Below, in pieces: positions 12,622 through 36,642 of a DNA stretch of 64,000 bases; positions within the stretch are counted from its first letter, which is position 1, and every line of letters starts with the position of its first letter. The position numbers were made by a program, and so were the translations under genes. The notes beneath the pieces are model-generated. The model saw only the letters and a list, made by a program, of their open reading frames with translations, was not told the DNA's origin and ran no database searches. The DNA comes from Vulcanimicrobiota bacterium (GTDB lineage: Bacteria; Vulcanimicrobiota; Vulcanimicrobiia; Vulcanimicrobiales; Vulcanimicrobiaceae), in contig CAWCIZ010000002.1 in assembly GCA_963795855.1 (NCBI GenBank), positions 96,001 through 160,000 on the forward strand, in the 5' to 3' direction.

Positions 12622-12774
12622 ATGGAGTACACCAAACCGGAAATCATGACCTCGTATGCAGTGATCGATCTGTATACATCAGCGTCGGGCTTTGCCTCGA
12701 CTCCGACTTGCACCGGCTCGTTCGACGACAACGGCATCGGCGCAAACTGCGACGACGGCGGATCGTACGGCTAA
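12622..12774 (+). CDS. Putative RiPP precursor peptide P1 (50 aa)
   Basis: MEYTKPEIMTSYAVIDLYTSASGFASTPTCTGSFDDNGIGANCDDGGSYG; AAGGA/GAGG upstream; own terminator; leader shared with P2 and P3. Confidence 0.88.
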   Translation: MEYTKPEIMTSYAVIDLYTSASGFASTPTCTGSFDDNGIGANCDDGGSYG

Positions 12775-16394: not shown

Positions 16395-16395
16395 A

Positions 16396-17715
16396 TTACA
16401 CCGTCTCCCCTTCGACTCGCTTGGGCAGCGCGATTATGCCGGAGAGCAGCCAAAATATCTGCGTAACCGGCGCATAGACGAATGGACCTTGCGTCCATAT
16501 TCCGCTCGTCAACAACGCGACTTGAACCGAAGCGAAGGTGATGTACGCGGCACGCGCCTCGGTTGAGACGGCCCGTTTTGAAGCTCGAATCGCGAGCGTC
16601 AAAAACGTGCCCTGGAAGACGAGCAAGATGATCAGCCCGGGAATGCCCGTCTGATAGAGCGTGGCATAATAAAGATTGTCGACGAGCAGCGGAGCTCGGC
16701 CGCCGCCCTTGTTGAGCCGGCCGCCGGCTCCGGTCGCACCAAGCCCGTTGCCGAACGGATGCCGTATGCTGCTCAATAAAGCGAGGTGCTCGCTGCGGGC
16801 TCGCGTCACGGCGCCGATATCGAGGCTGTCGCTCTGGTACCTGGCGCTCGACATGCCGCCGGTGGCCTTGAGCGCCAGCGGAATGGCGAGCAAGAGAATG
16901 CAGAACGCGACAACCGCTGGTACGCGCATCGACCGATGGCGCCACGACAGAATCAAGAACGCCAGCAAACCGGCGGCAAGCGCGGCGGCCGAGGCGCGAG
17001 CGGCGGAGAATTGCAGCGCGAGCGCCATGCTGACGAGACAGACGGTGAGCACGAGACGACCGAAACCGCGCGCGCGCGCCATCGCCCCTGCCGCGAGAAT
17101 GAATCCTACGCACGTCGCAAGACCCAGCGACGCCGGATCGACAAGCGTGCCGTACGCGCGCATGAAAGCACTGGTCAAGCCGCCCATACCCGCACTCTGG
17201 TATGAGGTAAAGCGGGACGACAAGACCGCGAGCGCCGGCGAGAGCGAGTTCCATGTATCGGGTGCGAGAGCCTGAAAGATGCCCGCAATCGTCGGGATCA
17301 TAATGCAGGCTATCGCAACGTTTATCGTTTTCGAAACGCGCCGCGGGTTGGTGAAAAACACGGCGCCGACGAAAAACAGTACGGAGAACAGGACCAACGC
17401 GCGAAATCCGGCGATACCCGTCGCGATGTCGCCGCTTCCGGGGTTGAGCACCTGCGCCGTCATGTATCCGATGTAGAGCCACCACGCCCAAAGGCCTTGC
17501 CACTTGCCTTTCGGCCGATCCCAGGGCCGAACCGCAAGCGTCACCAGCATCGCGACGACGAGCGCGAGAAGCGCAAAGTCCTTCATCACATAGAAGATCG
17601 TGTTTCCATGCGTGTTTTTCACGAATCCGTCTACGCACGAAACGAAGAGCAACGTCGAGGCGACGGCCGCCGTGGTAAGTCCTTTGCGGTTAATGGCCGG
17701 CTGGGCGTACAACAT
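16396..17715 (-). CDS. Wzy polymerase / O-antigen ligase family membrane protein
   Basis: Multiple TM helices; RAYGT, SAARAS, HPFGNGLG, DNLY...TGIPG. Confidence 0.85.
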   Translation of the reverse strand: MLYAQPAINRKGLTTAAVASTLLFVSCVDGFVKNTHGNTIFYVMKDFALLALVVAMLVTLAVRPWDRPKGKWQGLWAWWLYIGYMTAQVLNPGSGDIATGIAGFRALVLFSVLFFVGAVFFTNPRRVSKTINVAIACIMIPTIAGIFQALAPDTWNSLSPALAVLSSRFTSYQSAGMGGLTSAFMRAYGTLVDPASLGLATCVGFILAAGAMARARGFGRLVLTVCLVSMALALQFSAARASAAALAAGLLAFLILSWRHRSMRVPAVVAFCILLLAIPLALKATGGMSSARYQSDSLDIGAVTRARSEHLALLSSIRHPFGNGLGATGAGGRLNKGGGRAPLLVDNLYYATLYQTGIPGLIILLVFQGTFLTLAIRASKRAVSTEARAAYITFASVQVALLTSGIWTQGPFVYAPVTQIFWLLSGIIALPKRVEGETV

Positions 17716-17742
17716 CTACGAGTATCCTTAACGAGTAATCAA

Positions 17743-18433
17743 TCAGCGAGTGATGACGACTTCACCGGAACGCGTCGGAATCGGCAACGTCGGGACCTTG
17801 ATCTCGGGCTGCGCAGGCACCGTGACGGGCTCTTCCGCCGCGCGCACAACCGGTTCAGGACGGCGTTCTTTGCCCTCACCGACTGCAACGACGCCAAGGA
17901 TTTGTGCGCCGACGCGCCGCAGCGCGGCCGTAATCTCCTGATCCGCGGGCACGGGCCGGCGGCCGAATCGGAATGAGAGAATCACGCCGTCGCCGGCAAC
18001 TGCAAACTGCAGCGCAACCGGATTCGTCACGAGAACGCCCGCGTTGACGATCGTGACGTCGTACTTCGTACGCAGATTGTCGAGGACGGTGCGCATCTTC
18101 AGATACGACGTCGTGGTATGGGGAGCGCTCTCGGCGACTGCGACTGCCGACAGATTCTTGATGGTGCCGTTGACGGCGCTCCCGGGAATCGCAGCGAAAT
18201 CGCCGACCGCCGCGACCTTGAGTCCCAGTTCGTCCTTCAAGAGCTCGACCGCCGTACGGATCCACCACAACCGTGCTGTATCCGGAGTCCGCGAAAGCGC
18301 GGCTCAGTTCACAGGCAACGATCCCGGCGCCGTCCTCCGGTGCCGCGGCACCAATCACGATGACGGCCGGCGTGCGAACCATCGACTCGAGTGTGACGCG
18401 CAATGATGCGAATTCTTCGCTAACTGCTTTCAT
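17743..18433 (-). CDS. Wzc/CpsD-like tyrosine-kinase-fold protein, degenerate (frameshift near 18255)
   Basis: EEFASLRV...VIVI...LRTKYDVTIV...ILGVV; Walker A reads APEDGAG. Confidence 0.7.
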
Positions 18434-18449
18434 AGTAGACTCCCTTGCC

Positions 18450-19780
18450 TTAGTCGGTGGAAATGGTACCAAGTACCGGACGGCCATACAGGCTTTCGAC
18501 TCCGGCAACGGTGCGGATACGTGGATCCGTTACTTCGAGGAGGAACGCAAGCCCGAACGCGATGATAATGAAACCCGCGAGCGAACCGAAGATTGCGAGC
18601 ATCGAACGCTTATCGAGCGTTTGCGTCGCCATCTGCGCATGGTCGACCACGGTGACCGACCCGATGTCCGCTTCCTGCGCGGTCGTCGCGAGCGTGTCCG
18701 TATACCGCGAGGCCAGCGCCTGATATTCCGTTACGAGGAGATCGCGCTGACGACGCAGATCGCCGAGCTTCACACCCATGCCCGGAACCGCTTGCAAGTG
18801 ATCTTCCGTCTGCGATATCTGCGAATCGATCGCGTCCAGACGCGCCCGATCCGCCGCGAGTTTGGCGTCTATCGTGCCTTTCGACGACAACGCAGACGCG
18901 TACGTGGGGCTGAACGTCGTCGAAGAGGCTACGGCGGCTTTCTCTGCTGCAGCCAGTTCGCTCTTCTCCTGCGCAATCTGCGCCTTCAGACCCGCTAGGC
19001 CCGGATACGTTCCTTTGAACTGGGAACGAACGAGCGCGAGTTGCGCTTCATCGTTCGATTCCTGCGTGCGCAGGCTTCTGATAGTACGGATCGCTGGTGG
19101 TCTTCTCTTCATGCACGATTGGCGCGATTTCCGCTAGGTGGCGGGATTCGGCGCCGGCTTGTGCTTCGTCGCCGACCATTTCCGCTTGGAGGTTGTCGCG
19201 CTGTGCCTGCAATCCGAGGATCTGCTGCGCCAAAAACTTGAGCGGCGTCGGAATCCGCATTGTAGGGATCTTGAATCGTCGCCTTTTGCAGGTTTTGATC
19301 GACTTGCTCGATTTCGCCGCGCTTCTTCTTCAGTTCGTTTTGCAGATAGCCGGAAACCACGGTGAATCGCGTTGATGCGATCTGGCGATAGTAGTTGGAA
19401 AGTTCGACCGCTGCGGCGTTCGCCGCCCTGACGGCGATTTTCGGCGAACGATCCGAGTATGTAATCGGCATCACGTTGGAGCCGAAGTTCACGTGCGCCG
19501 TCAACTTCGTCTGGATTACCGCCAGCGGCTCGTCCAAGCGAAGATCGCGGCGAATGCCCTCGAGCACGTTCGTGCTCGTTGCAAGCGTCTGCAGATCGAT
19601 GCCGGTGGCAACGGGTGCAGCGCCCGCGCGCGAACTTATCGCGAGTACTTCCGAGGTAGCCGAATACTGCCGCGGCGCCGTCTTGAAAAGCAGGGCAGCC
19701 ACGACCACGCCGAAGACGACGACGTATGCGATGAGCCACCGCCGGCGCTTTAGAATATCAAGAACAGTCGAAAAGTCCAT
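18450..19780 (-). CDS. Polysaccharide co-polymerase (Wzz/GumC-like), frameshifted near 19110-19230
   Basis: ILKRRRWLI plus TM, coiled coil, C-terminal TM and DPRIRT...PVLGTI. Confidence 0.85.
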
Positions 19781-19792
19781 AGCGTTCTACTT

Positions 19793-21104
19793 TCAGCCAG
19801 CACTGGCAAGGGAAATGGAGTCGGCAATGGCGGCGCGGCCGATGCCGCGATACACGAGGCCCGCCGCGGCCACGCGTTCCGGATCCAAAAGGTTACGCCC
19901 GTCGACGACGAGCCTGCGGCGCAGGCGCGGCGCATATTGCGCTGGTTCGATCGATGCGAAGATCGGCCAGTCGGTGAGCACGACGAGCGCATCGGCATCG
20001 GCGGCCGCGAGCGGAGATCCAAGCACTTTGCAGGGCACGTGAAGCGGCAGCGCGTGAACGCCCGGGTCGTACGCCTGCAGCACGGCACCGCGCGCCGAGA
20101 GATCGTCGATGATGCGAAGGGCGAGAGAGTCGCGCACGTCACTGGTCCCGGCCTTGAAAGCAAGACCCCAGATTCCGATGGTGCGCCCTGCGAGCGATCC
20201 GAGCTCGGTCTCCAACTCTTTGACGACGACTTTGGGCTGCCGGTCGTTCACCTCGAGTATCGCGGACAAGAGGGTGCGTCCCGCTTGAAACTCGCCGGCG
20301 ACGTGCCGCAAACTCTTGACGTCCTTTTCGAAGCACGGGCCGCCGAAACCGATACCGGGATTGAGAAAGAGCGATCCGATTCGACGATCGTAGCCGACGC
20401 CGCGAAGCACTTCGTCCGCGTTCGCGTCTGCGCTCTGACAGAAGTTGGCGACTTCGTTTGCAAAACTGATCTTCAGCGCCAGAAACGCGTTGGACCAGCC
20501 CTTGATCAGTTCGGCCTCGCGCAGTCCCGTGACGACGATCGGCCATTGAAGCGGCTCGAACAAGCGCGCGTACGCAATCGCTGCGGCGTGGTCATTGCAC
20601 GCCGATGACGATCCGATCGGGATGCAGGAAGTCGTGAACCGCCGTGCCTTCTCGCAGAAACTCGGGATGATAAAGCACCGTGTGCTTGCCCTGCAGCCGC
20701 TTGACGACCATGTCGCTGGTCCCAGCCGGCACCGTGGAGCGCAGAACGACGATCGCCGACGGCGGCAGTTTGGCTGCGATAATCGCATCGATTGCGGCGT
20801 TCAGTCCGCGCAGATCCGCGGAGCCGTCGTCGGCCGAAGGCGTTCCGACGGTAAGCACCAGGAAGCGCGCGTCGGCGGCGGCGCGGGCAAAATCGTCGAG
20901 GAACGATATGCGGTTCTCCGCCAGATGTTTATGCAGCGCTTCGCTCAGCCCGGCTTCTTGATACGGCGTCACGCCGGCGCGCAAACCGGCGATGCGGTCG
21001 CGCAAAACGTCGTAGCCTCGGATTTCGCAGCCGAGTTCCGCTAGCCCGATGGCCGATGCCATGCCGACGTATCCGGTTCCGACGATGCAAATTTTACTGT
21101 TCAT
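19793..21104 (-). CDS. ugd: UDP-glucose 6-dehydrogenase (frameshift near 20595)
   Basis: IVGTGYVG, STVPAGT, PEFLREG, GFGGPCFEKD, GLAFKAGTSDVRDS. Confidence 0.92.
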
Positions 21105-21111
21105 GCGGTTA

Positions 21112-21720
21112 CTAGAATGCTCCATTAGCCGATATGACGGCCGTGAACGTGCGAGCGAGAAGGATGCCGTCGGTAATCGGCGAGGCGCTTCTGATGTAGT
21201 CGAGATCGAGCAATGTCGCTTCGGGCCTGGCAAGGGGGACGTTGGACCGATCGCTGATCTGCCACAGACCCGTGATGCCGGGTTCGACTAGGTGGCGAAG
21301 ATGCTGCCAGTTGTCGTATTGCTGAACGATGAACGGCATTTCAGGACGCGGCCCGACGAGCGACATGTCGCCGCGGATGACGTTGACGAGCTGCGGCAGT
21401 TCGTCGAGAGACGTCTTGCGCAGCCACTTGCCGACTCGCGTTATGCGCGGGTCGCCGGCATAGCTCGGGGAGACGCCGTAACCGCAGTTTTGCTTCTTCA
21501 TCGTTCTGAATTTGTAGATCGTGAAGGGGCGCTCGAAACGACCGACTCGCCGCTGTTTGAAGATGACGGGGTACCCATCTTCCAGTGCGATTGCGATTGC
21601 GCACATCAGCAATATCGGAAGTGCGATACACAGCGCGACCGCCGCAATGCCTGCGTTGAGGATACGGCGGACGCGCATGTATACGCGCTTCTCCCGGTAC
21701 ACGAGCGGAGCGATCGTCAC
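21112..21720 (-). CDS. Priming sugar transferase (Bac_transf family)
   Basis: [48 protein letters not shown]. Confidence 0.95.
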
Positions 21721-21721
21721 T

Positions 21722-22801
21722 TTAGAGACGTCCTCCGGGGAGTATGAAGCGAAGCCAGATGACGTCTTGGAAGAACTGACGCCAATCGATCTTGTGGCCT
21801 TCCGGTACGAACACGACGTCGCCATCCTCCAGTGCGGGGTTGGAAGACAGATCGCCGTGCTGCATGCGCGTGATATCGTACGAGGTCGTCACGCCGCGAT
21901 GCCGGATCATGATGTCTCGCAGGTTGGCCCATTTGTTCGGGCCGCCGGCAAGGTAGATTGCGCTGACCAGCGTGAAGTCGTCTTTGAGCGCAATCTCGCC
22001 CGACGAGTTCACGGCCCCCATGACTTGAATGTGTTCTTCGGACGGGATCGTCAAGCTGTCGCCGGAGTGTGCGGCGGCTGAGAACTCAGGGCTTCCTTCA
22101 GCAATTTGCTCGAGTTGCCCGTCGCGGCGCAGCAGTACTTGATGCGATGCCGAGGCGGTGATGCCGCCGAGTTGATCGATTGCGGTGGACAAGGGCTGAT
22201 CCGGGCTCAAGTATGCCGTTCCGGGGTGCAGCACCGCGCCTTTGACGTTTACGGCTAACGGCCGGTTCGCAAACGCGATGCTGTCGCCGGGCAGCAGCGT
22301 GGGGCCGGCGTCGCCGGCGCTTTGCAACGACTGCGCGTCGAACGGTCCTAACGCCATTCCGTTGCGAATGATCCGGATTTTGCTCGTGTCGCCCGCACTC
22401 TGATCGAGTAAACATTTGCAGGCTGCTTGAACGTCCGTCAAAGCGCTGACGAGTGTGTCGCCCGGCCGATACGTAATCGTACCGCCGGGGCCGCCCACCA
22501 CGAACATGTCGCTCGATTGCGATACCAGTGTGACGTCGACGGCCGGAAAGCGCATGTAATTCGCCAAACGGCCTTGAATGCGCGTTGCAAGCTCGGATTC
22601 GCTGGCGCCTTGCGCGGGTACCGCGCCGACGAGCGGCATCGAAACTCTGCCCTCGGCATCCACGGTCGCTTGCGTCGCGAGCTCGGGGTGATTGTAGACG
22701 GATATCTGGACTTTGTCTCCCGGATGAAGCGCCGCTTGTGCGGCGGCCGTAGCCAGGAGCAAAAGCGCGAGCGTGCCGGATGCGATACGCCGGATGTTCA
22801 T
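21722..22801 (-). CDS. Polysaccharide export protein (Wza-like, SLBB repeats)
   Basis: Signal peptide; LHPGDKVQISVYNHPEL...VDAEGRVSMPLVG; repeated SLBB segments. Confidence 0.9.
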   Translation of the reverse strand: MNIRRIASGTLALLLLATAAAQAALHPGDKVQISVYNHPELATQATVDAEGRVSMPLVGAVPAQGASESELATRIQGRLANYMRFPAVDVTLVSQSSDMFVVGGPGGTITYRPGDTLVSALTDVQAACKCLLDQSAGDTSKIRIIRNGMALGPFDAQSLQSAGDAGPTLLPGDSIAFANRPLAVNVKGAVLHPGTAYLSPDQPLSTAIDQLGGITASASHQVLLRRDGQLEQIAEGSPEFSAAAHSGDSLTIPSEEHIQVMGAVNSSGEIALKDDFTLVSAIYLAGGPNKWANLRDIMIRHRGVTTSYDITRMQHGDLSSNPALEDGDVVFVPEGHKIDWRQFFQDVIWLRFILPGGRL

Positions 22802-22819
22802 AGTCTTCTTCCTACGTCG

Positions 22820-23809
22820 TTACGGGGTATTGAAAACGGTAAGCGGTGAAACGCTGAAGTCGATTTGAGCCGGAAGCTTCGGCGCCTGCGATTGCCCTTG
22901 CGACTGATAAACGCTGATGTAGTTTTGGTCCGCGTCGATCAAGAGCGCTTGATATTGCGCCTTTCCGTAGAAATTGCCGGGCGCGACGCACGTGTAATCT
23001 TTGCTGGTTACGACGAAGCCCACGACGTTGAAGCCCGGATATTTGGTCGGATTGTTATCCAAATGCGTCAAGAACGCGACGAAGTATTCGGTGGTGCCCG
23101 CAGCGGGCGTCCACGTCACGTACGCGGACCCGACGGGGCAGCCGTTCGTTGCGTTTCCGGCAAACGAAACCGTCACCGGCGATTGCCTCGGAAGCGACAC
23201 GGCCGGATTCAAAATCGTGAAGTTCACGCTGCCGCCCGGCGGGTTGTTCACCTTGGCGTTGTACGTGCCGCCATGGTTCGAGGAATCGGCGTTCGAGCGA
23301 TAGCCGATGCCGAGCGTCGTCGTCGACGCAGACGTGTTGAACGCCTTGCCGCCGAGCCAAAGCGGATTCGTTACGTTTGTTTTATACGGTGCCGGCAATG
23401 ACGGGTTGTCGTTGGAGCACTCGCATAAGCCCGCAGCATCGCGGAAGGTCATCAGGAATCCGATCGCCGGATTCGAACCTTTACCGGATCGTGCGACCGT
23501 CGCGGTGCCGCCCGTTATCTGGAAAACGAACGGTCCGGATATTTTCGGCGTTACCGATGACGCTGCGGCTTGCGGAGCGCGAGTAACGACGCTCGACGTC
23601 GCGGTGAAACCGGCGTCGAGTTCGAGATCGGAAAGTAAATCGGATCCCGTCAAACTGAAGAGATCGTCAGGCGACATATTTTGCGGCGTCTGTCCGGAAC
23701 TATTTCCACCCGGCACAGGGCCGTTCGGTGTTCCGCCACCACCGCCGCCGCAGCCTGCGAGTGCAAGACCTGCGGCGAGTACAATGACGAGAAGAGCGCG
23801 CTTCTGCAT
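22820..23809 (-). CDS. Hypothetical lipoprotein
   Basis: Lipobox LAGC followed by a poly-Gly linker. Confidence 0.75.
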   Translation of the reverse strand: MQKRALLVIVLAAGLALAGCGGGGGGTPNGPVPGGNSSGQTPQNMSPDDLFSLTGSDLLSDLELDAGFTATSSVVTRAPQAAASSVTPKISGPFVFQITGGTATVARSGKGSNPAIGFLMTFRDAAGLCECSNDNPSLPAPYKTNVTNPLWLGGKAFNTSASTTTLGIGYRSNADSSNHGGTYNAKVNNPPGGSVNFTILNPAVSLPRQSPVTVSFAGNATNGCPVGSAYVTWTPAAGTTEYFVAFLTHLDNNPTKYPGFNVVGFVVTSKDYTCVAPGNFYGKAQYQALLIDADQNYISVYQSQGQSQAPKLPAQIDFSVSPLTVFNTP

Positions 23810-23931
23810 AGCAATTTCCCTCGGTTTCTCCGGCGGCGAAATGATGCACAAATGATAAACTAATGGCACCGTGCGCAATAAGAGCGCCCTGCACCAGGGT
23901 TATCCACGCAGTTGCCGGGTGTGCTATGAGC

Positions 23932-24321
23932 CTATCGGCGCACGTGCAGGTGATACTGCAGTGCTAACCGCAGGCGAAGAACGAGCGCTTTTGCGCTCGA
24001 ACGGACGTCCGAATGGATTACGCGTCCGTGCCGACGTACTTCGGTGACCGTACCTATGACGTCACAAGGTTCGACATGCTCCACCTGCCCGCGACTTGCA
24101 TCGCCGGCGGTCAGCACTTCGCCGCTGCCGATTCCGATGACACGGTGCGCGACCAGAACGTCGTTGTGCGGAAATACGACGACGTCGCCGAAACGCGGCG
24201 ACCGATGCGGTGATACGAGGAGATCGTCGCCTTCGAGGATCCCGGGCGACATGCTGCCGCCGCGCAAACGCAGGCACCACGGCCGCGTTGGGCGCGTCAT
24301 GGCGAGGACGTCTTTGAGCAT
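23932..24321 (-). CDS. S24/S26-family peptidase, candidate leader peptidase
   Basis: RGGSMSPGILEGD, FGDVVVF, VAHRV; ATG 24321 lies 2 nt after the kinase stop. Confidence 0.85.
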   Translation of the reverse strand: MLKDVLAMTRPTRPWCLRLRGGSMSPGILEGDDLLVSPHRSPRFGDVVVFPHNDVLVAHRVIGIGSGEVLTAGDASRGQVEHVEPCDVIGTVTEVRRHGRVIHSDVRSSAKALVLRLRLALQYHLHVRR

Positions 24322-24323
24322 CG

Positions 24324-25148
24324 CTACGCTACGGCGGTTTGCGCGTCCATCGTGAGGCGCTGCACGGCGTCGGCGGTATCGTCGGGAGCCCCAAGCGTCA
24401 GCGCATAGATGCGCGACTTCGATAACGCGGCGATGACCCGATCGACGATACGTAGGTGATTCTTGTCGATCGTCGTCTGCACTTCGCTGCCCACGGCCAG
24501 GAAGATCGCCTCGGAGAGCGGCAACGGGCGAGCGTGTGCGTGTCGCCCGCGCCCGATGATGAAGAAATATGAAGCTCGATGCGCCGAAATACCCCAAGCA
24601 CGGTCGAACGTGCGCGCGGGATCGACGGCCTCCCAATCGGTTTCCAAACCGTTCAAGGCCAGCAGGCGGCGCGTGCCGCTGCGAATCGAGAACAGACGCG
24701 GAAAGGATTCCACTTGTTCCGTCGCCGTGTTCACAAGCGCGAACTCGTCCGACAGGGGCATGTTGTCGTCGCTGCGCAGCATGAGCGAAAGCGATGTGGT
24801 GCTTTTCCCGCTGGTCGTCGGTCCGACGATTACGGCCGCTCTATCGCCAATAGCGACGGCGCCGGCATGAAAGACGACCAGCTCTTGCCGCAGGCGAAAG
24901 ACTCGAGCATTGATGGCGAGCATCGCACGGCCTTCGATTGCGGCCGGGGAAAGGCGAAGCGCGTTCGACGTTCCGAGATCGTCGAACGCCCGCACGAATT
25001 CGTCGCCGATGAGCACGCCAGCGGTGCGTCCGCGGGAGATGATGTACGCCGTAAGAAGCGGCTCGCACACACTGCTGTAGTCGAGCATCCGCGCATAGCG
25101 GCGTTCGATAAGATCCATGACGCGCTCGTCATCGCACCCGATCTGCAC
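24324..25148 (-). CDS. HPr kinase-related P-loop kinase 1
   Basis: VFHAGAV, Walker A GPTTSGKST, LSDEFA; start uncertain. Confidence 0.85.
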   Translation of the reverse strand: MQIGCDDERVMDLIERRYARMLDYSSVCEPLLTAYIISRGRTAGVLIGDEFVRAFDDLGTSNALRLSPAAIEGRAMLAINARVFRLRQELVVFHAGAVAIGDRAAVIVGPTTSGKSTTSLSLMLRSDDNMPLSDEFALVNTATEQVESFPRLFSIRSGTRRLLALNGLETDWEAVDPARTFDRAWGISAHRASYFFIIGRGRHAHARPLPLSEAIFLAVGSEVQTTIDKNHLRIVDRVIAALSKSRIYALTLGAPDDTADAVQRLTMDAQTAVA

Positions 25149-25191
25149 CGGGACGCGGGCGATGTTCAGGCGTGCGATGGTCGTAGTCCTA

Positions 25192-25449
25192 CTAAGCGAC
25201 TTCGCGGACCAAGCCCTGTTCGAGGAACACCGTCATGATTTCGGAAACGTCCTGTCCGAGATCATGACCATCCGCGTCATACCGAACGCGCAGATACTCT
25301 TCCAACTCGGTGTGCGTTTTGCCCGAGCAGTTGCGCAGCAAATCGGCCGCCGTCTGATTGACGACATGAACCTTTTCCCGCGCAGGATCGTACACCAAGG
25401 TCTCCACGCCGACCTCACGCATTTCGATGCCGTCAATCGCTTGATACAT
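25192..25449 (-). CDS. PqqD-family RiPP recognition element (RRE)
   Basis: 85 aa; ETLVYDP...VHVVNQTAADLLRNCSG...LRVRYD...DVSEIMTVFLEQGLV, typical PqqD pattern. Confidence 0.9.
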   Translation of the reverse strand: MYQAIDGIEMREVGVETLVYDPAREKVHVVNQTAADLLRNCSGKTHTELEEYLRVRYDADGHDLGQDVSEIMTVFLEQGLVREVA

Positions 25450-25452
25450 GTT

Positions 25453-25584
25453 TTACTCCGATATGATGTTGCATTGGGGATTAGACGGGCCGGTTTCGAA
25501 ACACATTACCGATGCGAAGCCCGACACGTCGCTGAACAATACGCCAACGTCATAGGACCGGATAATCTCCGGCCGGTTGTACAT
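25453..25584 (-). CDS. Putative RiPP precursor peptide P3 (43 aa)
   Basis: MYNRPEIIRSYDVGVLFSDVSGFASVMCFETGPSNPQCNIISE; 8 nt after the P2 stop and 3 nt before the RRE start. Confidence 0.88.
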   Translation of the reverse strand: MYNRPEIIRSYDVGVLFSDVSGFASVMCFETGPSNPQCNIISE

Positions 25585-25592
25585 CGTCTTAG

Positions 25593-25691
25593 TCATCCGA
25601 TTCCGCCCAAACTGCCGAAATCGCCGGCGGCGCTGGCAAACAAGGCGGCCAAATCGAATGTGGCTACGAGGACCGGGCGTGCATACTGCAT
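25593..25691 (-). CDS. Putative RiPP precursor peptide P2 (32 aa)
   Basis: MQYARPVLVATFDLAALFASAAGDFGSLGGIG; GGAAAGGA RBS upstream. Confidence 0.82.
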   Translation of the reverse strand: MQYARPVLVATFDLAALFASAAGDFGSLGGIG

Positions 25692-25791
25692 GTAGGCTGA
25701 TCCTTTCCAGAGGTGTTTTTTGATTGTAGCCGCTGCAGCCGCTGCTCCAAAGTGCAGGAAGACACGCGGGCTCTTATGCCTTGAGTGCTAC

Positions 25792-26595
25792 CTACACATA
25801 AGCCAAGGTGCCCACGCGCCGCGCGTGCTGAATCGACATCATGAACAGCGCAAGGGCCAAAGGTATTCCTACCACCGCGAAGGCGGCCAGAACGAGCACG
25901 TCGCCGCGTATCACGCCGAAACCGGCGCCGTGCAAGATCGCTGCCCGCAGCGCGCTCAGGCCGTGCGTGATTGGGAAGACCATGGAGACGACTTTGAGCG
26001 GCAGCGGCAGAACCGCCACGGGGAAGTACACGCCGCCGAGCAGATTCGTCGCGCTGCTGACTATGCCCAAGGCCCCGGTGCCTTTTTTGAACGCGATAAC
26101 GGAGGCGGCCGCGGAGATTCCTATGGGCGAGATGGCGAGCATCGACAGCCCCAGGGCGAGCAGAGCCGTCGGCACATTGGCATGGTGGAGGTTCACGCCG
26201 AACACCGCAGCGCCAATCACCAGGATGAGCACCGTCTGCACGGCGGTGAAAACGAACGCCGACGTTGCTGAGGCGAGGACGACCGCCGGAACGCTGGCCC
26301 GCGTAACCAGAATCGCCTCGATCGTTCCCGACACCTGGTCGCGCTGGATAGCGCTCGCGAATGACGTAAGCGCGACGGACTGGAACCGCGCGAAAACGAT
26401 GCCGATGAGCACGAATTCGAAATACTGGCCGTGCACTGCCTTGAGCGCGCCGGCGCTCGAGCCGAACGTGCGCCCCACGAAAAACATCATCGCGCACATG
26501 ACGAGCACGGACGAGAGCTGCCCGAAGATCGAAAACTTCGACACGGTTTGATACGCCCAGTCGCGGCCGATGAACGCCGACAAAATTTTGGTCAT
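25792..26595 (-). CDS. ABC-2 type permease
   Basis: GTIEAILVT, GGVYFPVAVLP...PITHGLSALR; TGATG coupling to the ATPase gene. Confidence 0.9.
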   Translation of the reverse strand: MTKILSAFIGRDWAYQTVSKFSIFGQLSSVLVMCAMMFFVGRTFGSSAGALKAVHGQYFEFVLIGIVFARFQSVALTSFASAIQRDQVSGTIEAILVTRASVPAVVLASATSAFVFTAVQTVLILVIGAAVFGVNLHHANVPTALLALGLSMLAISPIGISAAASVIAFKKGTGALGIVSSATNLLGGVYFPVAVLPLPLKVVSMVFPITHGLSALRAAILHGAGFGVIRGDVLVLAAFAVVGIPLALALFMMSIQHARRVGTLAYV

Positions 26596-27383
26596 CAGGT
26601 TCCTCTCGCGACGCTTCGGAAATAGCCGAACAGCGGCTGTTCCCGCGTGCCCGCGGGCGCCTTTGCTTCGATCTCCAGCGGGGTCCCGACGGCCGAAACG
26701 CGATGCTCGTGCAGGATGGCCATGCGGTCGCACATCGACCATGCTTCGTCGAGCTGGTTGGTGGCGAGCAGAACCGTTTTGCGCTCGGCTACGACAAGCC
26801 GGTCGCGGACGCTTTGACGAAATTCGACGGCCGCGATCGGATCGAGTGCTTTCGTCGGCTCGTCCAACAGCAACACCGGGGGATCTGCGAGCATCGCCCG
26901 GATCAGCGCCAGGCGCTGCTTCATACCGGTGCTGTAGGAACGGACGCTGGAATGCAGGCGGTCCGCCAGCCCCAACCACTCCGCAAGTTCGAAAATGCGC
27001 TTGCGCAGTGCCGTTCTTCCCAAGCCCTGCAGTTTGCCAAAGAACTGTAAGTTGTCCCACGCGGTCAGGCGCATGTAATACGCGCGTTCGTCGGAGCTGC
27101 AGATTCCGATGCGTACGCGCACTCGAGCCGACTGGCGCGCGACGTCGTAGCCGAGCACTCGCACCGTGCCGGAATCCGGAACCAAAAGGGTCGAGATGAT
27201 CTTTAGAAGCGTGGTTTTTCCGGCGCCGTTCAAACCCAGCACGCCATAACACTCGCCGGCACGCATCGTCAGCGTCACGTCTTCGAGTGCCGTGCGCTTT
27301 TCCGCGCGGCGGAACATCTGGCGCATCCCCTGATCGATGGGATACTGCTTACAGACGTTGCGGATTTCGATGGCGTCAGGCAT
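26595..27383 (-). CDS. ABC transporter ATP-binding protein
   Basis: GLNGAGKTT, YSTGMKQRL, LLLDEPT. Confidence 0.95.
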   Translation of the reverse strand: MPDAIEIRNVCKQYPIDQGMRQMFRRAEKRTALEDVTLTMRAGECYGVLGLNGAGKTTLLKIISTLLVPDSGTVRVLGYDVARQSARVRVRIGICSSDERAYYMRLTAWDNLQFFGKLQGLGRTALRKRIFELAEWLGLADRLHSSVRSYSTGMKQRLALIRAMLADPPVLLLDEPTKALDPIAAVEFRQSVRDRLVVAERKTVLLATNQLDEAWSMCDRMAILHEHRVSAVGTPLEIEAKAPAGTREQPLFGYFRSVARGT

Positions 27384-28521
27384 GCGGCAAAAACGGTGAA
27401 ACGGCGCGGCGGAAACCGCCCACGAGCCGCTTCATCAGCTTGGGACGGGCATCGAACTGCGTGAATTCGACGCTCCCGAAATTCTGTTTGAGCAAGTGCA
27501 CGCGATCCGAAAACCGTTCCATCCAAAACAGGCGCATCAGCGTGCGATGGCCGCTTCCGCCGGTAAGGACGCGCGCAACTCCGATATCCGTTACGTAACG
27601 CGAGAGCGTTCCGCCGCGGCGCTCGAGCAGGCGGGAAAGCAGATTCTTGTCCACGGGAGCGTCCAACAGCCACTTCGCGAGTTGCAGCGCGGGCGCCACC
27701 ACCTGCGCCGCGTTCGCTTCCGTGACGCGCTGCTCGAAGACGTCCCAGTCGATTGGCCCGTGCAGCGACTCCGCGATGTCGACAATCCCTCGCAAATGTC
27801 CGTCGAAGCCGTTGCCCCATGCGAGGTGAATGCAGAGATGCAGCAGTTCGTCCTGGGGGTCGAGCCGTCTGCACGGCACTCCGGCGAGGACCACCGGCAC
27901 CGCGCGGTGCCGCATCGCGTCGATATTCAAACGAAACGGGTTGGGCCGCCGGCCGAAGTCCCAGTGGAGTTCGATGCAAAAGCGGCTCGGTTTTCGCGAA
28001 TGCCTGGGCAACTGGTAGTAGTTTTCGAAATACCAACTGCGCCCGTGGGGCGTCGCCTCAGCGTCGTATCCCAGACGCGCCAGCACGTCCTCGGCGAGCG
28101 CAATCTCTTCCCGGCCGAACAGGACGTCGAGATCGCAGAACGCGCGCAGACTGATGTCCCGGTAAAGCGTCTCCGCCAGCGCGACGCCCTTGAGCACGAT
28201 TGGGGAAAGCCCCGCATCCTCGAAGGCGAGAAGCGCCTCGTGCGCCTGCCGCAAGAAGACACTGTTGAGCGCCGAGCGCTTCTGCCGCTGTTCCTGCAGC
28301 TGCTGCACGACCGAATCCGGAACCTTTATCCCACGGCACGATTCTATCGTACGAAGCAGCAGCGGTCCGAAATGATGTTTGGATGCCGTATCGAGCACCG
28401 CTTCCCAGGACTTAACGCCCGCCGCCGCGGCAACCGCGGCATCGGCGTGCGGGCGCAATCGCGCGCACGCGAGGATAAAACGCCACTCCGGCGTCATACT
28501 CTGCGCCAAATTCCGGTTCAC
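27376..28521 (-). CDS. Nucleotidyltransferase family protein (NTP_transf_5-like)
   Basis: IVLKGVALAETLY...RAFCDLDVL, IELHW, LLHLCIH. Confidence 0.88.
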   Translation of the reverse strand: MNRNLAQSMTPEWRFILACARLRPHADAAVAAAAGVKSWEAVLDTASKHHFGPLLLRTIESCRGIKVPDSVVQQLQEQRQKRSALNSVFLRQAHEALLAFEDAGLSPIVLKGVALAETLYRDISLRAFCDLDVLFGREEIALAEDVLARLGYDAEATPHGRSWYFENYYQLPRHSRKPSRFCIELHWDFGRRPNPFRLNIDAMRHRAVPVVLAGVPCRRLDPQDELLHLCIHLAWGNGFDGHLRGIVDIAESLHGPIDWDVFEQRVTEANAAQVVAPALQLAKWLLDAPVDKNLLSRLLERRGGTLSRYVTDIGVARVLTGGSGHRTLMRLFWMERFSDRVHLLKQNFGSVEFTQFDARPKLMKRLVGGFRRAVSPFLPHA

Positions 28522-28538
28522 GGTTTGTCGGGTCCCTT

Positions 28539-29201
28539 CTAAATCAGGCCGGATCTAACTGCGTGAACTGCCGCTTGCGAGCGCGCGGTGATATTCAGCT
28601 TCGAGAAAATGTGACTGACGTGATTTTTCACGGTCTTGTCGGACAGGCTCAGCTGCTCGCTGATCTCCTTGTTCGAGAGGCCCTGCGCGATCAGACGAAT
28701 GACTTCATTCTCGCGCGGCGTCAAATCGTACATGTGACCGCGGCTGGTCGAGCTGCGGCGGCGCAGCAGTTCGCCGGCGATCCGCGGATCCACGTAGGAA
28801 CCGCCCGCGGCGATGATCTTGAGGGCGCGAATCAGTTCTTTCGGAGCCACGTCTTTGATGATGTAGCCGCTGGCGCCGATGGAAAGCCCCCGCTGCAGCA
28901 CTTCCGGCTGCAATTGCGTCGAGAGCAAACAGACTTTTACGGACGGGGCATCGCGGCGCACGGCCGCCATCGCGTCGTCCATCTTGAGGATTTGTCCGTC
29001 GACGTCGAACACGATCAGGTCCGGCGTGAGGGAGCCGAGCGGAATTTTGTCGATCGCTTCGGCGTCGCCGACGATCTCGAGTTCCGCGTCGGTCGCGAGC
29101 AACTGGCAAAGCGCCTTGGCAAAGATGCCCTGGCCGGCGACCACTACGATGCGCGTCGTCCGCGAAATCGCTTGCGGTGCTTCCAATAGTCCTGCAGTCA
29201 T
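28539..29201 (-). CDS. NarL/LuxR response regulator (orphan, atypical acidic pocket)
   Basis: REC domain (LIVFD, GYIIKD) plus LTPRENEV...KTVKNHVSHIFSKL. Confidence 0.93.
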   Translation of the reverse strand: MTAGLLEAPQAISRTTRIVVVAGQGIFAKALCQLLATDAELEIVGDAEAIDKIPLGSLTPDLIVFDVDGQILKMDDAMAAVRRDAPSVKVCLLSTQLQPEVLQRGLSIGASGYIIKDVAPKELIRALKIIAAGGSYVDPRIAGELLRRRSSTSRGHMYDLTPRENEVIRLIAQGLSNKEISEQLSLSDKTVKNHVSHIFSKLNITARSQAAVHAVRSGLI

Positions 29202-29504
29202 GGAGAAATCGTGCCTCCTAATAATATGAAGAACGAACGGCTCGGGTAACTATCATCCTGCCACTCGTCGTACGGTCACGGCCGAGTTCCGCAATCATGC
29301 CATACTGAAATGCCTATATCTATCCCGCATTTGCGGTATTTTTTGTTGGGATAGGACTAAAGAACTGCACGCTGCCCGGGCTATTGGGCGTGCACAGTCC
29401 CGTACTCACGGCTACGCGGCCCATTATCGCATGGGCGTAACGCTTCTGCGCATGTCAGACTCTCAAAGTTATGCTGTTTGAAACCCCGTCCGAATGGAGC
29501 AGCA

Positions 29505-30384
29505 GTGCACGACTCAGTACAATACAGAATTGCCGACGTCGACGTCGCGATCGAAGCGCCGGCGTCCATCTTGCGAATCGTGACCGATACATACCGGCGA
29601 TTCCCGATCAGCGCGCCGCGAACAGTGCCGCACGTTAGGGTTCTGGCGGCAATCGACGACGATGGTCACGTGGACATACGCATCGGTGAAAAGCATTATC
29701 AAAACGTCTTCGCCTGGACAGGCCGGGCAACGGTCGGACTGGAGCTCGTCGAACGCCATCATCACCGCCGTGGCACAGCACTCGCGCTTTCTGATCGTGC
29801 ACGCAGCCGCATTGGAACGTGACGGTGAAGCGCTCTGCATCGCCGCTCCCGGACATACCGGCAAGACGCTGCTCACGGCGCATCTTCTCTCACGCGGCTG
29901 GCGCTGCCTGAGCGACGAATACGCGTTCATCGAACCGCTCAGCGGTCAGATCGTGCCGTTTCCGAAGTTGCTGTACGTGCGCTCTTCCTCGCTGCCGCTG
30001 GTGCCGCGCACGTTTCGCAAATGCCTGGAATGCTCGCCGTGGTATGGAATGGGTGAGCGTCCCGGGCTCGTGTTCTCCGGCGTCGACCCGAGCGCCGCGT
30101 ATTCGGAAGACATCTGGTCCACCGGCGCGCGCTTGTCCCGTCTTCTCATGCTCGTGAAACGCAACGCTTCGGGCCCATCCATCAAACCGTGCGCCGGGTG
30201 GTCGATTATCCCGGAACTCAATTCGGTAACGTGGCAGCCGCCGGATCTGCTGGACGGTTTGTCACGCATGGCGGCCGCGCTGCGCGGCGTCGAGGTCGGC
30301 AAACTGGTCGCGGCGGATCCGCTGATGACCGTAAACGCCATCGAACAGTGGGCTGCAACGGAGCCGGCGATCGCGTATGCCTAA
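29505..30384 (+). CDS. HPr kinase-related P-loop kinase 2 (frameshift near 29750)
   Basis: GGAG RBS and GTG 29505; IVHAAAL, APGHTGKT, LSDEYA, PFPK. Confidence 0.82.
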
Positions 30385-30937
30385 TGCGCCGCTTGCGCGC
30401 CCGCTCGCGAAGAAGGCCGAGATGCTCGGCTTCTTGTTTCGTTTGCTGCTTTTCGATCTGTTCGTCGGCTCGCGCGAGGGACTCGTGAAGATTGGCGCGG
30501 GCGTGAGCGCCACCGGCGATGTCAAAGTGCATCTGGGCAAGCGTGTGTTTTTGGGCCGCAGCGGCGTCTTTCAGGGCACCGGAACCGTCAACGTCGGCGC
30601 CGGTACCTACGTGGGGAATTTTTTCGATTTCAATTCACGGGCGAGCATCGAGATCGCGGAGCAGTGCATGTTCGGCAATTTCGTCACCCTGGTCGACAAC
30701 AACCACGGAACCGCCGTGGATCGCGACATGAAAGATCAGCCGTTTGAAGCGAAAGGCATCGCCGTCGGAAGAAATTGCTGGCTCGGCGAAAAAAGCACTG
30801 TGCTTGCGGGCGTTACCATCGGCGAAAATGCAATCGTCGCCGCAGGATCCGTCGTGACGCGCGACGTGCCGGCGAATGCAGTGGTAGCGGGCGTACCGGC
30901 GCGGGTTCTTCGCCTGCGCACGCCGGTTGCGGTGTGA
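30377..30937 (+). CDS. Hexapeptide-repeat O-acyltransferase
   Basis: CWLGEKSTVLAGVTIGENAIVAAGSVVTRDVP...GVPAR. Confidence 0.92.
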   Translation: MPNAPLARPLAKKAEMLGFLFRLLLFDLFVGSREGLVKIGAGVSATGDVKVHLGKRVFLGRSGVFQGTGTVNVGAGTYVGNFFDFNSRASIEIAEQCMFGNFVTLVDNNHGTAVDRDMKDQPFEAKGIAVGRNCWLGEKSTVLAGVTIGENAIVAAGSVVTRDVPANAVVAGVPARVLRLRTPVAV

Positions 30938-30939
30938 CC

Positions 30940-32530
30940 ATGCCCGAGGCGCAAGCCATACATCAGCAGCACACCGCCAAACAAATTTTCCTGAACACGT
31001 TCGCCGGCCTCGCCAGCAGCACGGGCTCGGCTCTGGCGGGCTTGATCGCGACGCCGCTGCTGATTTCGCGCCTCGGCGTCGAGACCTTCGGATTCTGGGC
31101 GGTGCTCACGGCGATGGTGAACTACGCGGGGCTGCTCGACGGCGGTCTGAACAGCACGTTCATGAAGTACATCGCCGAGTACGCTGCGCGCGGCGAACGC
31201 GACCGCATCCGTCAGGTCATCACATTCGGGGCATCGTTCTACGCAGTGTTGGGTTTCGTCGTTGCCCCGATTGCCGCGTATTTCGCGCCTTTCGCCATTG
31301 GGGTGATGCACGTCGATCCGGCTATAGCTCGACAAGGACCCGCCGTATTCGGATGGATAACGCTCTCGCTCTTTCTGACCGGCGGCGCGGCGGCGATTGC
31401 TTCGGTGCTCAGCGGCTTCGGCCAGTCCGCGAATCGTCTGGATGAGCAACTTCTTCAGCCGTACCGTCTTTTCGATCGTCGCCGTCGGTCTCTGTTATTT
31501 CGGTTTCGGATTGACCGGCATGGTATTGGCGACGTTCGCGCAGCTCGCCGTTTTCGCGCTGCTTACCGGAGTGGCGGCGCGGCGGCGCTTCGGATCGCTC
31601 TTCATAGCGCCGTGGCGGTGGGAGCGCAGCGTCATCAGAAATCTTTTCGCGCTCGGGGGTTGGATTCAACTCACGAACGCGTGCAGCACCATCGTCGTCG
31701 AGAGCAACCGGTTTATCATTTCTGCGTTCGTCTCGACGAGCGCCGTCACGTATTTCGAAGTCGCGAGCCGGCTCACGCGCGTTGCCCGATCGATACCATT
31801 CAACTTCATCGTCGCGCTGCTGCCCGCCGTCTCGGCCAGGAACGCCGCCCTTCCGGACGACGAGTTCAACGCGACGTACGTGCGAGCCAGCCGGTACGTC
31901 AACTACGCGACGATTTTTCTCGTCGGCTTCATCATTGCCGCCGGAAAGGTGCTCTCGTTCGCGTGGATCGGAACAATCTATCCGCACATCGGCCTCATCG
32001 TGCTGCTCGTCGGACTTTCATTCATCTTCATCAACGTCACGATGGTCGGGACCACGATGCTCCGCGCGATCGCTCTGGCCAAATACGAAACGTACTATTA
32101 TGCGGTGTGGACGGCTGCCAGCATCGCGCTGATGATGGCAACGGTGCCGTTTTTCGGAATGAACGGCGTGCTCGGCGGTATGGTTGGCGGCGCCGCTATC
32201 GGAGCCGCTTATTTTCTGACTCTGCTCCACCGTCTGCGCGATCTGCCGGCATGGCAGAGCTTTTTCGCATGGGCGCTTCCGCTTGCGGCGGTGGGCAGCA
32301 TCGCGATCGGCGTTACGGCCGCCGTTGCAAACCTGCTCGGAGTGCATGGAAGCAGAATCGCGGCCTGCGGAACGCTGGTCGAGCTTTTGGCCGTTTACTG
32401 CGTGGTTTTTGCCGCCGGAACGTTTGCGTGCCGCTTCTTCAATGGCAGCGACGTCGCGTTGCTCGGACGAATACTTCCGCCTCGTTTTGCGCGGCGGCTT
32501 TCCCGCTACGCGAGCTCGGCTCCAGCGTGA
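30940..32530 (+). CDS. Wzx-type flippase (frameshift near 31430)
   Basis: TPLLISRLGVETFG, multi-TM MOP-family pattern over two frames. Confidence 0.85.
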
Positions 32531-32642
32531 TCTAGTTCGAATGCCCTACGAGAACCTGAGAAGCCGGAACCTGATGCCCGGCGCGGATACCTTGATATTC
32601 TGAAATAGTGCGTTGTCCACCAGTCGCAAAAAGGAGTGCCCC

Positions 32643-33497
32643 GTGGCTCGATTGAGCGTCGTCATCCCCACAAAAAATTGCGTCGAACTCATGCGGAGAA
32701 CGATGGCCGCGCTTGATTTCGCAGACGAGGTCATCGTCGTCGACATGTATTCCACCGACGGCACGGCGGAACTCGTCCAGTCCTATCCCAACGCTCGGCT
32801 GATCAGCCGAAACGGCTACATCTACGGGAATGTGAATCACGGGTTCGACGCCGCAACCGGCGACTGGGTCATGCGATTGGATTCGGACGAAGTACCGACG
32901 CCCGAGCTCGGCCGGGAAATACGCGAACGAATCGAATCGGCGCCCGAAGATCTTTGCGGGTTCTACATTCCAAATCGGACGTATTATTCAAACCGGTGGC
33001 TTCGCTACGGCCCGGCTTACGATCCGCTTTCGCCGATCCCGGGTGAACGTTTCCGTCTCTGCCTGTTCCGAAAAGGCATGGGAAAATTCGAGTCTGAACT
33101 CGCGCATTCGGATCTGACCGTTTACGGCCGCTGCGAATACCTCAAAAACCGGTACGATCACTACTCGGTTCGTTCGTTTTCACACTACATCGCGAAGAAC
33201 AACTATTATACCGATCAGGACATCGAACACCTGGATGCAAACGCGTGCAATCCGAGATCGGAAGCATGGGCGATGTTGTGGGGGCCGATCAAAGAGTTCC
33301 TCGTCTTTTTCGTCAAAAGGAAGGGCTACAAGGACGGCCCCTTAGGCATCATCGCATGCGGCGGTTACGCAATGCTGCGCTTCATGATTCACGCCAAGCG
33401 TTGGGAACGGCTGACGGCGATGCAAAACGACATAAGCGACGCGGACAAGCGAACCATGCTGGAGTACGTGACCGCAAGCCACATCACCAACGTTTAA
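32643..33497 (+). CDS. Glycosyltransferase family 2
   Basis: LSVVIPTKN, VVDMYSTDGT, WVMRLDSDE; AAGGAG RBS before GTG 32643. Confidence 0.92.
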   Translation: MARLSVVIPTKNCVELMRRTMAALDFADEVIVVDMYSTDGTAELVQSYPNARLISRNGYIYGNVNHGFDAATGDWVMRLDSDEVPTPELGREIRERIESAPEDLCGFYIPNRTYYSNRWLRYGPAYDPLSPIPGERFRLCLFRKGMGKFESELAHSDLTVYGRCEYLKNRYDHYSVRSFSHYIAKNNYYTDQDIEHLDANACNPRSEAWAMLWGPIKEFLVFFVKRKGYKDGPLGIIACGGYAMLRFMIHAKRWERLTAMQNDISDADKRTMLEYVTASHITNV

Positions 33498-35197: not shown

Positions 35198-35336
35198 AAG
35201 AAACCCTCAGGTGCGGAGGCTCGACTCTTAAGTAGTCGGCAATAACGTGCGGTTCTGCAGCGTCAGCGCGGGCGCCGGAACGGCACCGACGGTAATACTC
35301 TTGTAAAGCCGCGGGCGAGGCGCGCTGTTGCGATGG

Positions 35337-36530: not shown

Positions 36531-36593
36531 TAATGCCTCCGCAACGGTGCTTCGACTACACGGCGCCTGCGCACCTCGCCGCGGCGTGTAACG

Positions 36594-36623
36594 AAAAAAA
36601 AGCCGGGCTGACTGCCCGGCTTT
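36594..36623 (-). terminator. Intrinsic terminator after GH paralog 3
   Basis: AAAGCCGGGC-agtca-GCCCGGCTTT followed by a T tract on the minus strand. Confidence 0.85.
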
Positions 36624-36642
36624 CCCATGTTCGGCTTCTGCG

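Follow-up and report, generated by a model that had tools for sequence, protein, structure and literature searches.

We analysed a 64,000-nucleotide stretch of the genome of a Vulcanimicrobiota bacterium (GenBank assembly GCA_963795855.1, contig CAWCIZ010000002.1, positions 96,001 to 160,000; hereafter the window), in which an earlier note, made from the letters alone, had described a putative gene cluster for a RiPP (a peptide made by the ribosome and modified after its translation) at 23932-30384. The cassette found there very likely resembles the pathway of the linear polyphosphorylated peptides (LPPs) of Bacillota (Popov et al., Nat Commun 2026; PMC13381572) and is probably the hub of an LPP-like Eremiobacterota RiPP pathway that also has several satellites, i.e., precursor genes encoded away from it. 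In the earlier note, peptides with a YxxP leader motif were bound by a RiPP recognition element (RRE), phosphorylated by HprK-like kinases, tailored by a PF14907 enzyme, cut by an S26 peptidase, and exported without any cyclase. This mechanism is well supported, with the PF14907 step probable, but the claim of a new class did not survive the publication of LPPs in 2026; the system is a distinct variant of the LPP-type pathway. The dispersed modules of precursor and JmjC hydroxylase genes described below had escaped the earlier note.

A conserved cassette and its precursor peptides

The cassette is a minus-strand run headed by a NarL/LuxR-type response regulator (28539..29201; Pfam GerE and Response_reg), copies of which, 61-82% identical, adjoin the cassette in four relatives (G203, G055, G151, and G302). 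Behind it lie an NTP_transf_5 (PF14907) transferase of the LppN/PsmN family (27376..28521; Pfam E = 1e-47), the DrrA-like ATPase of an ATP-binding cassette (ABC) exporter (26595..27383; PF00005, best NCBIfam match TIGR01188), and its DrrB-like ABC-2 permease (25792..26595; PF01061, E = 4e-14). Two short precursor genes come next, P2 (32 aa; 25593..25691), with YxxP at residues 3-6 and GAAAGGA upstream, and P3 (47 aa; 25453..25596), with YxxP at residues 6-9 and a start that overlaps the P2 stop. The run ends with a discrete 85-aa RRE of PqqD fold (25192..25449; PF05402 (PqqD), E = 1e-8), the HprK-related kinase K1 (24324..25178; TIGR04352, E = 2e-9, below cut-off), and a soluble, signal-peptidase-I-like S24/S26 peptidase of 129 aa (23932..24321; PF00717, E = 5e-9; TIGR02228, E = 2e-8, below cut-off). 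Apart from a gap of ~100 nt ahead of P2, all genes between and including transferase and peptidase overlap or almost abut. A second HprK-related kinase, K2, is transcribed divergently on the plus strand (29505..30384; TIGR04352, E = 1e-18, below cut-off). Reading frames and Pfam/NCBIfam profile searches bore out the genes, positions, and order given in the earlier note, save that K2 starts at a GTG at 29505 and not at 29662. The probable start of K1 is an ATC that follows an AGG motif overlapping the stop codon of the RRE gene (25176-25195, minus strand); this candidate occupies the same position in 5/6 loci, and such a conserved non-canonical start could hold the level of the kinase down.

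The window's own genome (G000; 6 contigs totalling 3.06 Mb; completeness 86%) is taken to belong to Eremiobacterota, since the named homologues come from Vulcanimicrobiaceae and Ca. Eremiobacteraeota. Conservation was assessed in a sample of 301 genomes of this phylum, and the tallies of RRE and peptidase homologues include G000 as well as the unpublished genomes G233, G246, and G248. Homologues of the RRE were found in 42 genomes and homologues of the peptidase also in 42, with 35 common to both when the two tables were compared. We read 40 RRE loci, the window and 39 others, and in 29 of these the RRE, a kinase, the S26 peptidase, and the PF14907 transferase occurred together. The cassette is confirmed as a real, conserved gene set. 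Two kinases were present at 19 of the 29 cassette loci and the pair of ATPase and ABC-2 permease at 21. The earlier note had proposed a neighbourhood search for short YxxP open reading frames (ORFs) beside homologous RREs; 25 of the 29 loci carried one to three, and at the four without any, the contig broke off upstream of the kinases. The S26 peptidase and the PF14907 transferase shared one reading frame at 22/29 loci and were separate genes in the window clade, and a transferase domain was found on 63 of the top 80 peptidase representatives.

Ser23, His59, and Asp74 of the peptidase were invariant in 28 homologues, and its predicted model (pLDDT 92) matched the LexA C-domain and signal peptidases; a search for a membrane anchor found no 19-residue hydrophobic stretch above 1.2 on the Kyte-Doolittle (KD) scale. 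A plasmid search with the peptidase returned three weak matches and no LPP locus. In K1, the invariant His and the GK(S/T)T and SDE motifs were kept in 16 homologues. Asn31 and Asp67 of the RRE were invariant in 30 homologues and correspond, in a by-eye match to the homologues in the available LPP supplement, to Asn33 and Asp70 of LppB (PMC13381572). The RRE profile matched TfuB1, PqqD, and TbiB1, and weakly LppB (9X8Z; E = 0.086); LppB was not recovered when PDB sequences were searched with a single RRE. A kinase tree of 61 rows (L146, L078, and rows shorter than 170 aa excluded; the window K2 row including the residues upstream of its frameshift) showed two position-linked groups in the main family, with K1 and K2 each in a long-branch clade of its own whose base is open. 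The loci did not support the idea that the two kinases serve two Ser registers: G055 and G151 pair both precursor types with one kinase and carry K2 on other contigs. Two further elements of these families occur in G000, namely a tandem of orphan HprK-like kinases (G000:C1:37006-39146, L075), with neither RRE nor precursor nearby, that the tree places among the main-family kinases close to those of the same-genus G273, and a lone second RRE of 93 aa without a cassette (G000:C3:252353-252826, L076), which has similar counterparts in the same-genus G160 and G254. Orphan kinase pairs like L075 were also seen in G203 and G302.

Precursor statistics were compiled over 56 distinct peptides; the locus of G248 was excluded, as was a further one that encodes the identical two peptides. 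All 56 carry YxxP, and a constant leader is followed by a variable tail. In the predicted cut register, Ala or Val occupies position -3 in 53 peptides and Gly or Ala position -1 in 53, leaving cores of 7-35 aa with two Cys in 27/56. A small-residue -3/-1 pattern before the cut is typical of signal peptidase I. Every core contains Ser, at +3 in 30/56 and at +3 or +4 in 40/56. For P2 the predicted cut follows Gly23 and leaves a 9-aa core with Ser27 at +4, and for P3 it follows Gly26 and leaves a 21-aa core that begins F-A-S (Ser29 at +3) and contains Cys32 and Cys42. The last residue is Gly in P1 (described below), Gly in P2, and Glu in P3.

The earlier note would have given up its proposal had the small ORFs not been conserved in relatives. 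Homologues of P2 occur in G203, G302, and L146, with ratios of non-synonymous to synonymous differences (pN/pS) of 0.17-0.32, and those of P3 in G203 and L146 gave 0.23-0.42; over all orthologous pairs the ratio was 0.17-0.42 in 8/8 (uncorrected, with pairs that share members). P2 and P3 are, by these ratios, under purifying selection. A profile of 25 precursors from outside the window clade ranked P2 first and P3 second among 65,851 six-frame ORFs, with chance-control E values of 0.006 for P2 and 4.1 for P3, the latter not significant alone. A 62-aa ORF at 29381-29569 was rejected as a precursor, having neither a Pfam/NCBIfam match nor a counterpart in G203.

Precursors and JmjC hydroxylases outside the cassette

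Six precursors accompany the one cassette of G000: P2 and P3 lie within it, and four others, all with a P3-type leader and an F-x-S core start, lie elsewhere (window 12622-12774, C2:565268, C1:251116, and C3:683804). The earlier note had spoken of P1-P3; its placing of P2 and P3 next to the RRE stood, but it left P1 unplaced, and the third YxxP peptide of the window lies 13 kb off. This satellite precursor, P1 (50 aa; 12622..12774, plus strand), has a leader like that of P3, a predicted cut after Gly23, and an Asp/Asn/Gly-rich core of 27 aa that begins F-A-S and contains Cys30 and Cys43. Its orthologue in G302 is identical at 32/48 residues (pN/pS 0.39).

The precursors at window 12622, C2:565268, and C1:251116 sit 160-430 nt ahead of a JmjC gene (PF08007). 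In the window, 179 nt downstream of P1, this is a RoxA/NO66-type JmjC iron/2-oxoglutarate (Fe/2OG) hydroxylase gene (12953..14190, plus strand), with PF08007 in both of the pieces into which it is broken. An intact JmjC gene with an adjacent precursor lies at G000:C2:563708-564949. An intact paralogue has a predicted fold like those of NO66, MINA53, and YcfD (NO66: Z 22.4, root-mean-square deviation (rmsd) 10.7, 362 residues aligned; YcfD: Z 17.1, rmsd 3.8, 263 aligned), and the iron ligands HxD...H are present as HYD plus a distal His in 11/11 sequences. The C-terminal domain is a RoxA-type winged helix (WHD_ROXA clusters); we rejected it as a hidden RRE, as it has no profile support (probability 1.7%).

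The close JmjC clade (43-55% identity) was found in 6/301 genomes, i.e., the five with the window-type RRE (one of them the unpublished G248) and G142. Among the best 80 matches of a GTDB-wide JmjC scan, a precursor was present at 8/8 close loci and at 0/70 distant loci, and a second scan gave 0/24 at distant loci. Some loci were common to both scans, and peptides were therefore counted by distinct sequence: all 11 of the JmjC-adjacent precursors begin F-x-S, and Asp plus Asn make up 24% as against 11% in the other 45. The window layout, in which satellites occupy the far end of the exopolysaccharide (EPS) locus, is repeated in G203 and G302. In G301, an RRE, a precursor, a JmjC gene, and two kinases form a single run, with the S26-transferase fusion and the exporter on another contig. 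A single-protein metagenome scan with the JmjC sequence gave no match.

Other genes recur near these satellites. Sulfotransferase-family genes, mutually 41-42% identical and possibly responsible for further tailoring, lie near JmjC satellites in G000 and G203 (L083:11389-13289 and L077:10215-11174). A protein of 360-390 aa without a Pfam match stands beside JmjC satellites at three loci (L083:9482-10648, L084:8454-9530, and L159:7231-8206; 36-48% identical); its Atlas clusters are unnamed and come from Verrucomicrobiota and Acidobacteriota.

Relation to known pathways and competing explanations

In the LPP report (PMC13381572), clusters of the form lppA-K-B-S-D-N, partly validated and located in capsule loci, encode the RRE LppB, LppS (a TIGR02228 peptidase of archaeal SpI type), the TIGR04352 kinase LppK, the PF14907 protein LppN, and an MsbA-like pump, without a cyclase. 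LppK acts on its peptide, and core Ser3 carries one to four phosphates; cleavage is RRE-dependent and occurs after F-E-T, the site being F-x-T/A with F at -3. Deletion of lppN was without effect, and LppN was inactive in its only test. LPPs are said there to be restricted to Bacillota, and the authors only speculate on function. In six supplements, the term Eremiobacterota does not appear, JmjC and PF08007 are absent, and Cupin_4 occurs once, as a column name.

The hub shares with LPPs a discrete RRE, a YxxP leader, a soluble Ser-His-Asp peptidase of TIGR02228 type, a TIGR04352 kinase, PF14907, an exporter, the lack of a cyclase, one to three precursors, a capsule or EPS location, and a conserved Ser three residues into the core. 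It appears to work as LPP systems do, and its enzymes fall into the LPP model families, with TIGR02228 and TIGR04352 matched below cut-off. The two also differ. The leader of the window variant is five residues longer (Tyr at -21, as against -16) and ends A/V-x-G where LPPs have F-E-T; the LPP consensus Px9Fx[T/A] is found in 1/56 precursors and F-x-T/A at -3 to -1 in 0/56. The exporter here is a two-gene ABC-2 type (DrrAB-like), whereas that of LPPs is MsbA-like. Two kinases (19/29), the peptidase-transferase fusion (22/29), the short cores, the two Cys (27/56), dispersed precursors with JmjC hydroxylases, and the phylum further set the variant apart. Since leader consensus and exporter type differ, we did not file the system as an LPP member. 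The FETxxS of P3 was rejected as a true LPP site: it is incidental, because three orthologues read FEQ, FEN, and FEE. The variant would take chemistry of the LPP type outside Bacillota under another cleavage rule, and its short cores, natural peptidase-transferase fusion, and two kinases should make the LPP end product and the role of the NTP transferase easier to test.

Parts of the system recall other pathways. The best NCBIfam matches of both kinases and the RRE are to the HPr-rel-A cassette of EPS loci (kinase TIGR04352, PqqD protein TIGR04353), but all of the window matches are below the curated cut-offs, and precursors and a peptidase are identified here. The pathways of lasso peptides that carry a phosphate or a phosphoglycosyl group (paeninodin PadeK, ThcoK, pseudomycoidin PsmK/PsmN; PMC9266682) share YxxP-type RRE recognition, an HprK-like kinase with a His-Lys-Asp-Asp/Glu motif, and tailoring of phosphoserine by a nucleotidyltransferase family; here, an S26 peptidase replaces macrolactam cyclase and B2 protease, and the target Ser lies near the core N-terminus and not at the C-terminal residue. 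Fe/2OG RiPP hydroxylases beside a precursor gene are represented by CanE, which hydroxylates Asp of the lasso precursor of canucin with RRE help (PMC9266682), and by CzlI (curacozole), a JmjC RiPP hydroxylase (PMC11575548). The satellites share that arrangement, and with NO66, MINA53, and YcfD the JmjC fold, the HxD...H ligands, and the RoxA-type winged helix; they differ in that no lasso or azole pathway is present and that several precursor-enzyme pairs share one distant hub. Phospeptin (EmbA/EmbM, Ca. Eudoremicrobium; PMC9259500) is likewise a linear phosphorylated RiPP from Eremiobacterota, but it is made by one lanthipeptide-dehydratase-like maturase acting on Thr, and in the available part of its description RRE, HprK, S26, and PF14907 are not mentioned. 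Our literature search, for which subscription papers were mostly out of reach, returned no description of the Eremiobacterota variant or of JmjC satellites.

By analogy with LPP and lasso systems, the RRE would bind the YxxP leader of each precursor, and one or both HprK-like kinases would phosphorylate the Ser at +3/+4, probably repeatedly. The PF14907 enzyme would most likely then add a sugar or nucleotide cap to this phosphate, by analogy with PsmN of pseudomycoidin (PMC9266682). The Ser-His-Asp peptidase would cut, with RRE help, after A/V-x-G, the site to which conservation points, and the ABC-2 pump would export a core of 7-35 residues, in which a disulfide would often form once it is outside the cell. 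The hub itself encodes P2 and P3; P1 and the three further precursors would use it in trans, and in three satellites, the adjacent JmjC enzyme would hydroxylate the Asp/Asn-rich core before leader removal, in analogy to CanE and CzlI. If the satellites do use the hub, a JmjC family of ribosomal-oxygenase type would have been recruited as modular RiPP tailoring enzymes, and precursors overlooked when the cluster alone is read would be explained. We also entertain, at slightly below even odds, a combinatorial network in which the EPS-embedded hub matures six precursors, and JmjC paralogues, joined in some modules by sulfotransferases and the 360-390 aa protein, diversify disulfide-closed, Asp/Asn-rich cores into phospho-glycosylated, hydroxylated, and possibly sulfated peptides; if true, both the product type and the hub-and-satellite layout would be without counterpart in the literature searched. 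The EPS location gives a weak hint that the product most likely has a surface function or signals in connection with exopolysaccharide production.

Several observations weigh against the LPP-like pathway with satellites as proposed here. The RRE profile is nearer to the lasso protein TfuB1 (E = 2e-6) than to LppB, and the LPP leader consensus is unmet. Since 10/29 cassette loci have a single kinase only, the two kinases are not always adjacent, and 16/56 cores lack a Ser at +3/+4. The leader-position counts are partly circular, because position -1 was fixed partly by the seed rule and the profile picks leader-like rows; one row (L043) is mis-registered. Related genomes are, moreover, not independent of one another. 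On the side of the satellites, one of the four JmjC genes of G000 is not preceded by a precursor, and P6 lacks a JmjC gene. G142 (93% complete, 90 contigs) carries the close JmjC along with three F-x-S precursors but gave no detectable RRE, cassette peptidase, PF14907, or kinase. Finally, both K2 and the P1-linked JmjC gene are frameshifted in this assembly, K2 by 1 nt near 29748 (the G203 orthologue is intact and 74% identical) and the JmjC gene near 13500 and 13800-13900. Similar breaks occur at ~8 places in the window, including 13500, 18200, 19100, 20600, 29700, and 31400. Since several ordinary genes are among those broken (e.g., UDP-glucose dehydrogenase, Wzz, and flippase) and the breaks of relatives fall elsewhere, indel errors of assembly are the likely cause.

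The case of G142 would suit a division in which the hub is LPP-like for P2 and P3 while the modules of precursor and JmjC branched off independently and require no RRE or kinase. The JmjC enzyme (with sulfotransferases nearby in some loci) would then modify the peptide, and trimming would fall to a housekeeping enzyme, either a signal peptidase or a protease. The JmjC protein has its own winged-helix domain, and sulfotransferase-family genes stand beside two satellites. That helix, however, has no profile likeness to the RRE, and YxxP, the -3/-1 motif, and F-x-S are all retained by the satellites in exact register with P3. Five of the six genomes with the close JmjC clade are, in addition, those with a window-type RRE, and G301 joins RRE, precursor, JmjC, and both kinases. 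We therefore regard an independent offshoot as unlikely. It is a little less probable still that F-x-S is the peptidase site, as F-E-T is in LPPs, with the cut after that Ser and the phosphate on a later Ser/Thr. An alignment of 14 window-clade precursors shows F and S without variation, and the LPP site has F at -3 (PMC13381572). In this register, however, the P2 core would be 5 residues without Ser/Thr, a Pro follows the Ser in three P2-type peptides, F is at +1 in only 20/56 precursors as against the near-universal A/V-x-G/A, and the FETxxS of P3 is not kept in its orthologues.

Substrates other than the short peptides, and cyclized products, are more improbable than either. Were the kinases and the transferase to decorate an exopolysaccharide or surface protein, with the small ORFs as adaptors or regulators, the placing of the cassette within the EPS locus of window-clade genomes would follow naturally; the K2 orthologues of G055 and G151, which neighbour a sugar ABC importer in stretches that showed no precursor, and the orphan kinase pairs without precursors in G000, G203, and G302 would also fit. 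But constant leaders with variable cores, paralogous precursors, a Ser in every core, and a peptidase are hallmarks of RiPPs, many cassette loci have no EPS gene by the queries used, and LppK acts on its peptide (PMC13381572); this decoration thus seems decidedly improbable. We assign even less weight to ordinary phosphorylated lasso precursors whose cyclase and B2 protease are encoded elsewhere or are missing from the assembly, and consider this reading largely refuted. YxxP leader, HprK kinase, and PF14907 are features of paeninodin and pseudomycoidin (PMC9266682), G000 is only 86% complete, a B2-like match is present in 17/39 RRE-positive genomes, and in G029 and G209 this match belongs to a PqqD-kinase-GT2-B2-transferase run at a distance of 17-18 kb from the cassette. 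However, the conserved Ser lies close to the N-terminus of the core where phosphorylated lassos have it C-terminally, and a dedicated S26 peptidase is always present and mostly fused to the transferase. B2 (PF13471) was not found in G000, G203, G055, G151, G142, or G301, with one in G302. Against the lasso cyclase model, the sole full-length Asn-synthase-like gene of G000 scored 149 of 525 bits, far below the cut-off; it is of the Cys-start AsnB form, beside glycosyltransferase-like genes. The earlier note had named a lasso cyclase and B2 elsewhere in the genome as grounds for abandoning its reading, and neither was found in the 86%-complete genome.

Profile searches likewise agreed with the earlier note that the window has no cyclase, B2, radical SAM, YcaO, or Lan enzyme. 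Elsewhere in G000, radical SAM proteins gave 16 matches; SPASM was not found in G000 (0/7 genomes), nor was YcaO, which is present but unlinked in 4/7 genomes. A LanC-like ORF of 212 aa lies on another contig (G000:C1:289048-289686; L246:8048-8686), with no dehydratase or precursor seen adjoining, and was not found in six relatives. A cassette of PqqD, kinase, GT2, B2-like, and PF14907 genes occurs at L079:5495-10275 (G209) and L078:10561-15498 (G029), with no cyclase among the ORFs scanned, and a similar set is present at G302:C30.

Exopolysaccharide genes and other features of the window

Between the P1/JmjC pair and the cassette, Pfam identified EPS genes (14302..23878) for a GT4 glycosyltransferase, epimerase, Wzy-like protein, Wzz, UDP-glucose dehydrogenase, sugar transferase, Wza, and lipoprotein, and past K2 for an acetyltransferase, flippase, and GT2 (30377..33497, plus strand). 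The flank between P1/JmjC and the cassette recurs in G203, G055, G151, and G302. In the interval between regulator and K2, blocks of conserved non-coding DNA (window 29290-29450) are shared by 4 genomes and are a candidate bidirectional promoter or regulator site. Promoter and terminator scans gave no signal beyond chance level, and no shared motif upstream of the six G000 precursors was obvious by eye, no motif finder having been run.

Three other features of the window were noted. A lipoprotein-like ORF without a family match (22820-23809, minus strand) lies in the peptidase-Wza interval and is 37-59% conserved in the window clade. An ORF at 7569-9159 (minus strand) contains a tandem repeat of ~7-8 codons that is repeat-like in several frames on both strands. 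Within the EPS region, 33503-38127 (minus strand) encodes three secreted paralogues of 480-560 aa that are 64-69% identical, one of them with a weak GH5 match.

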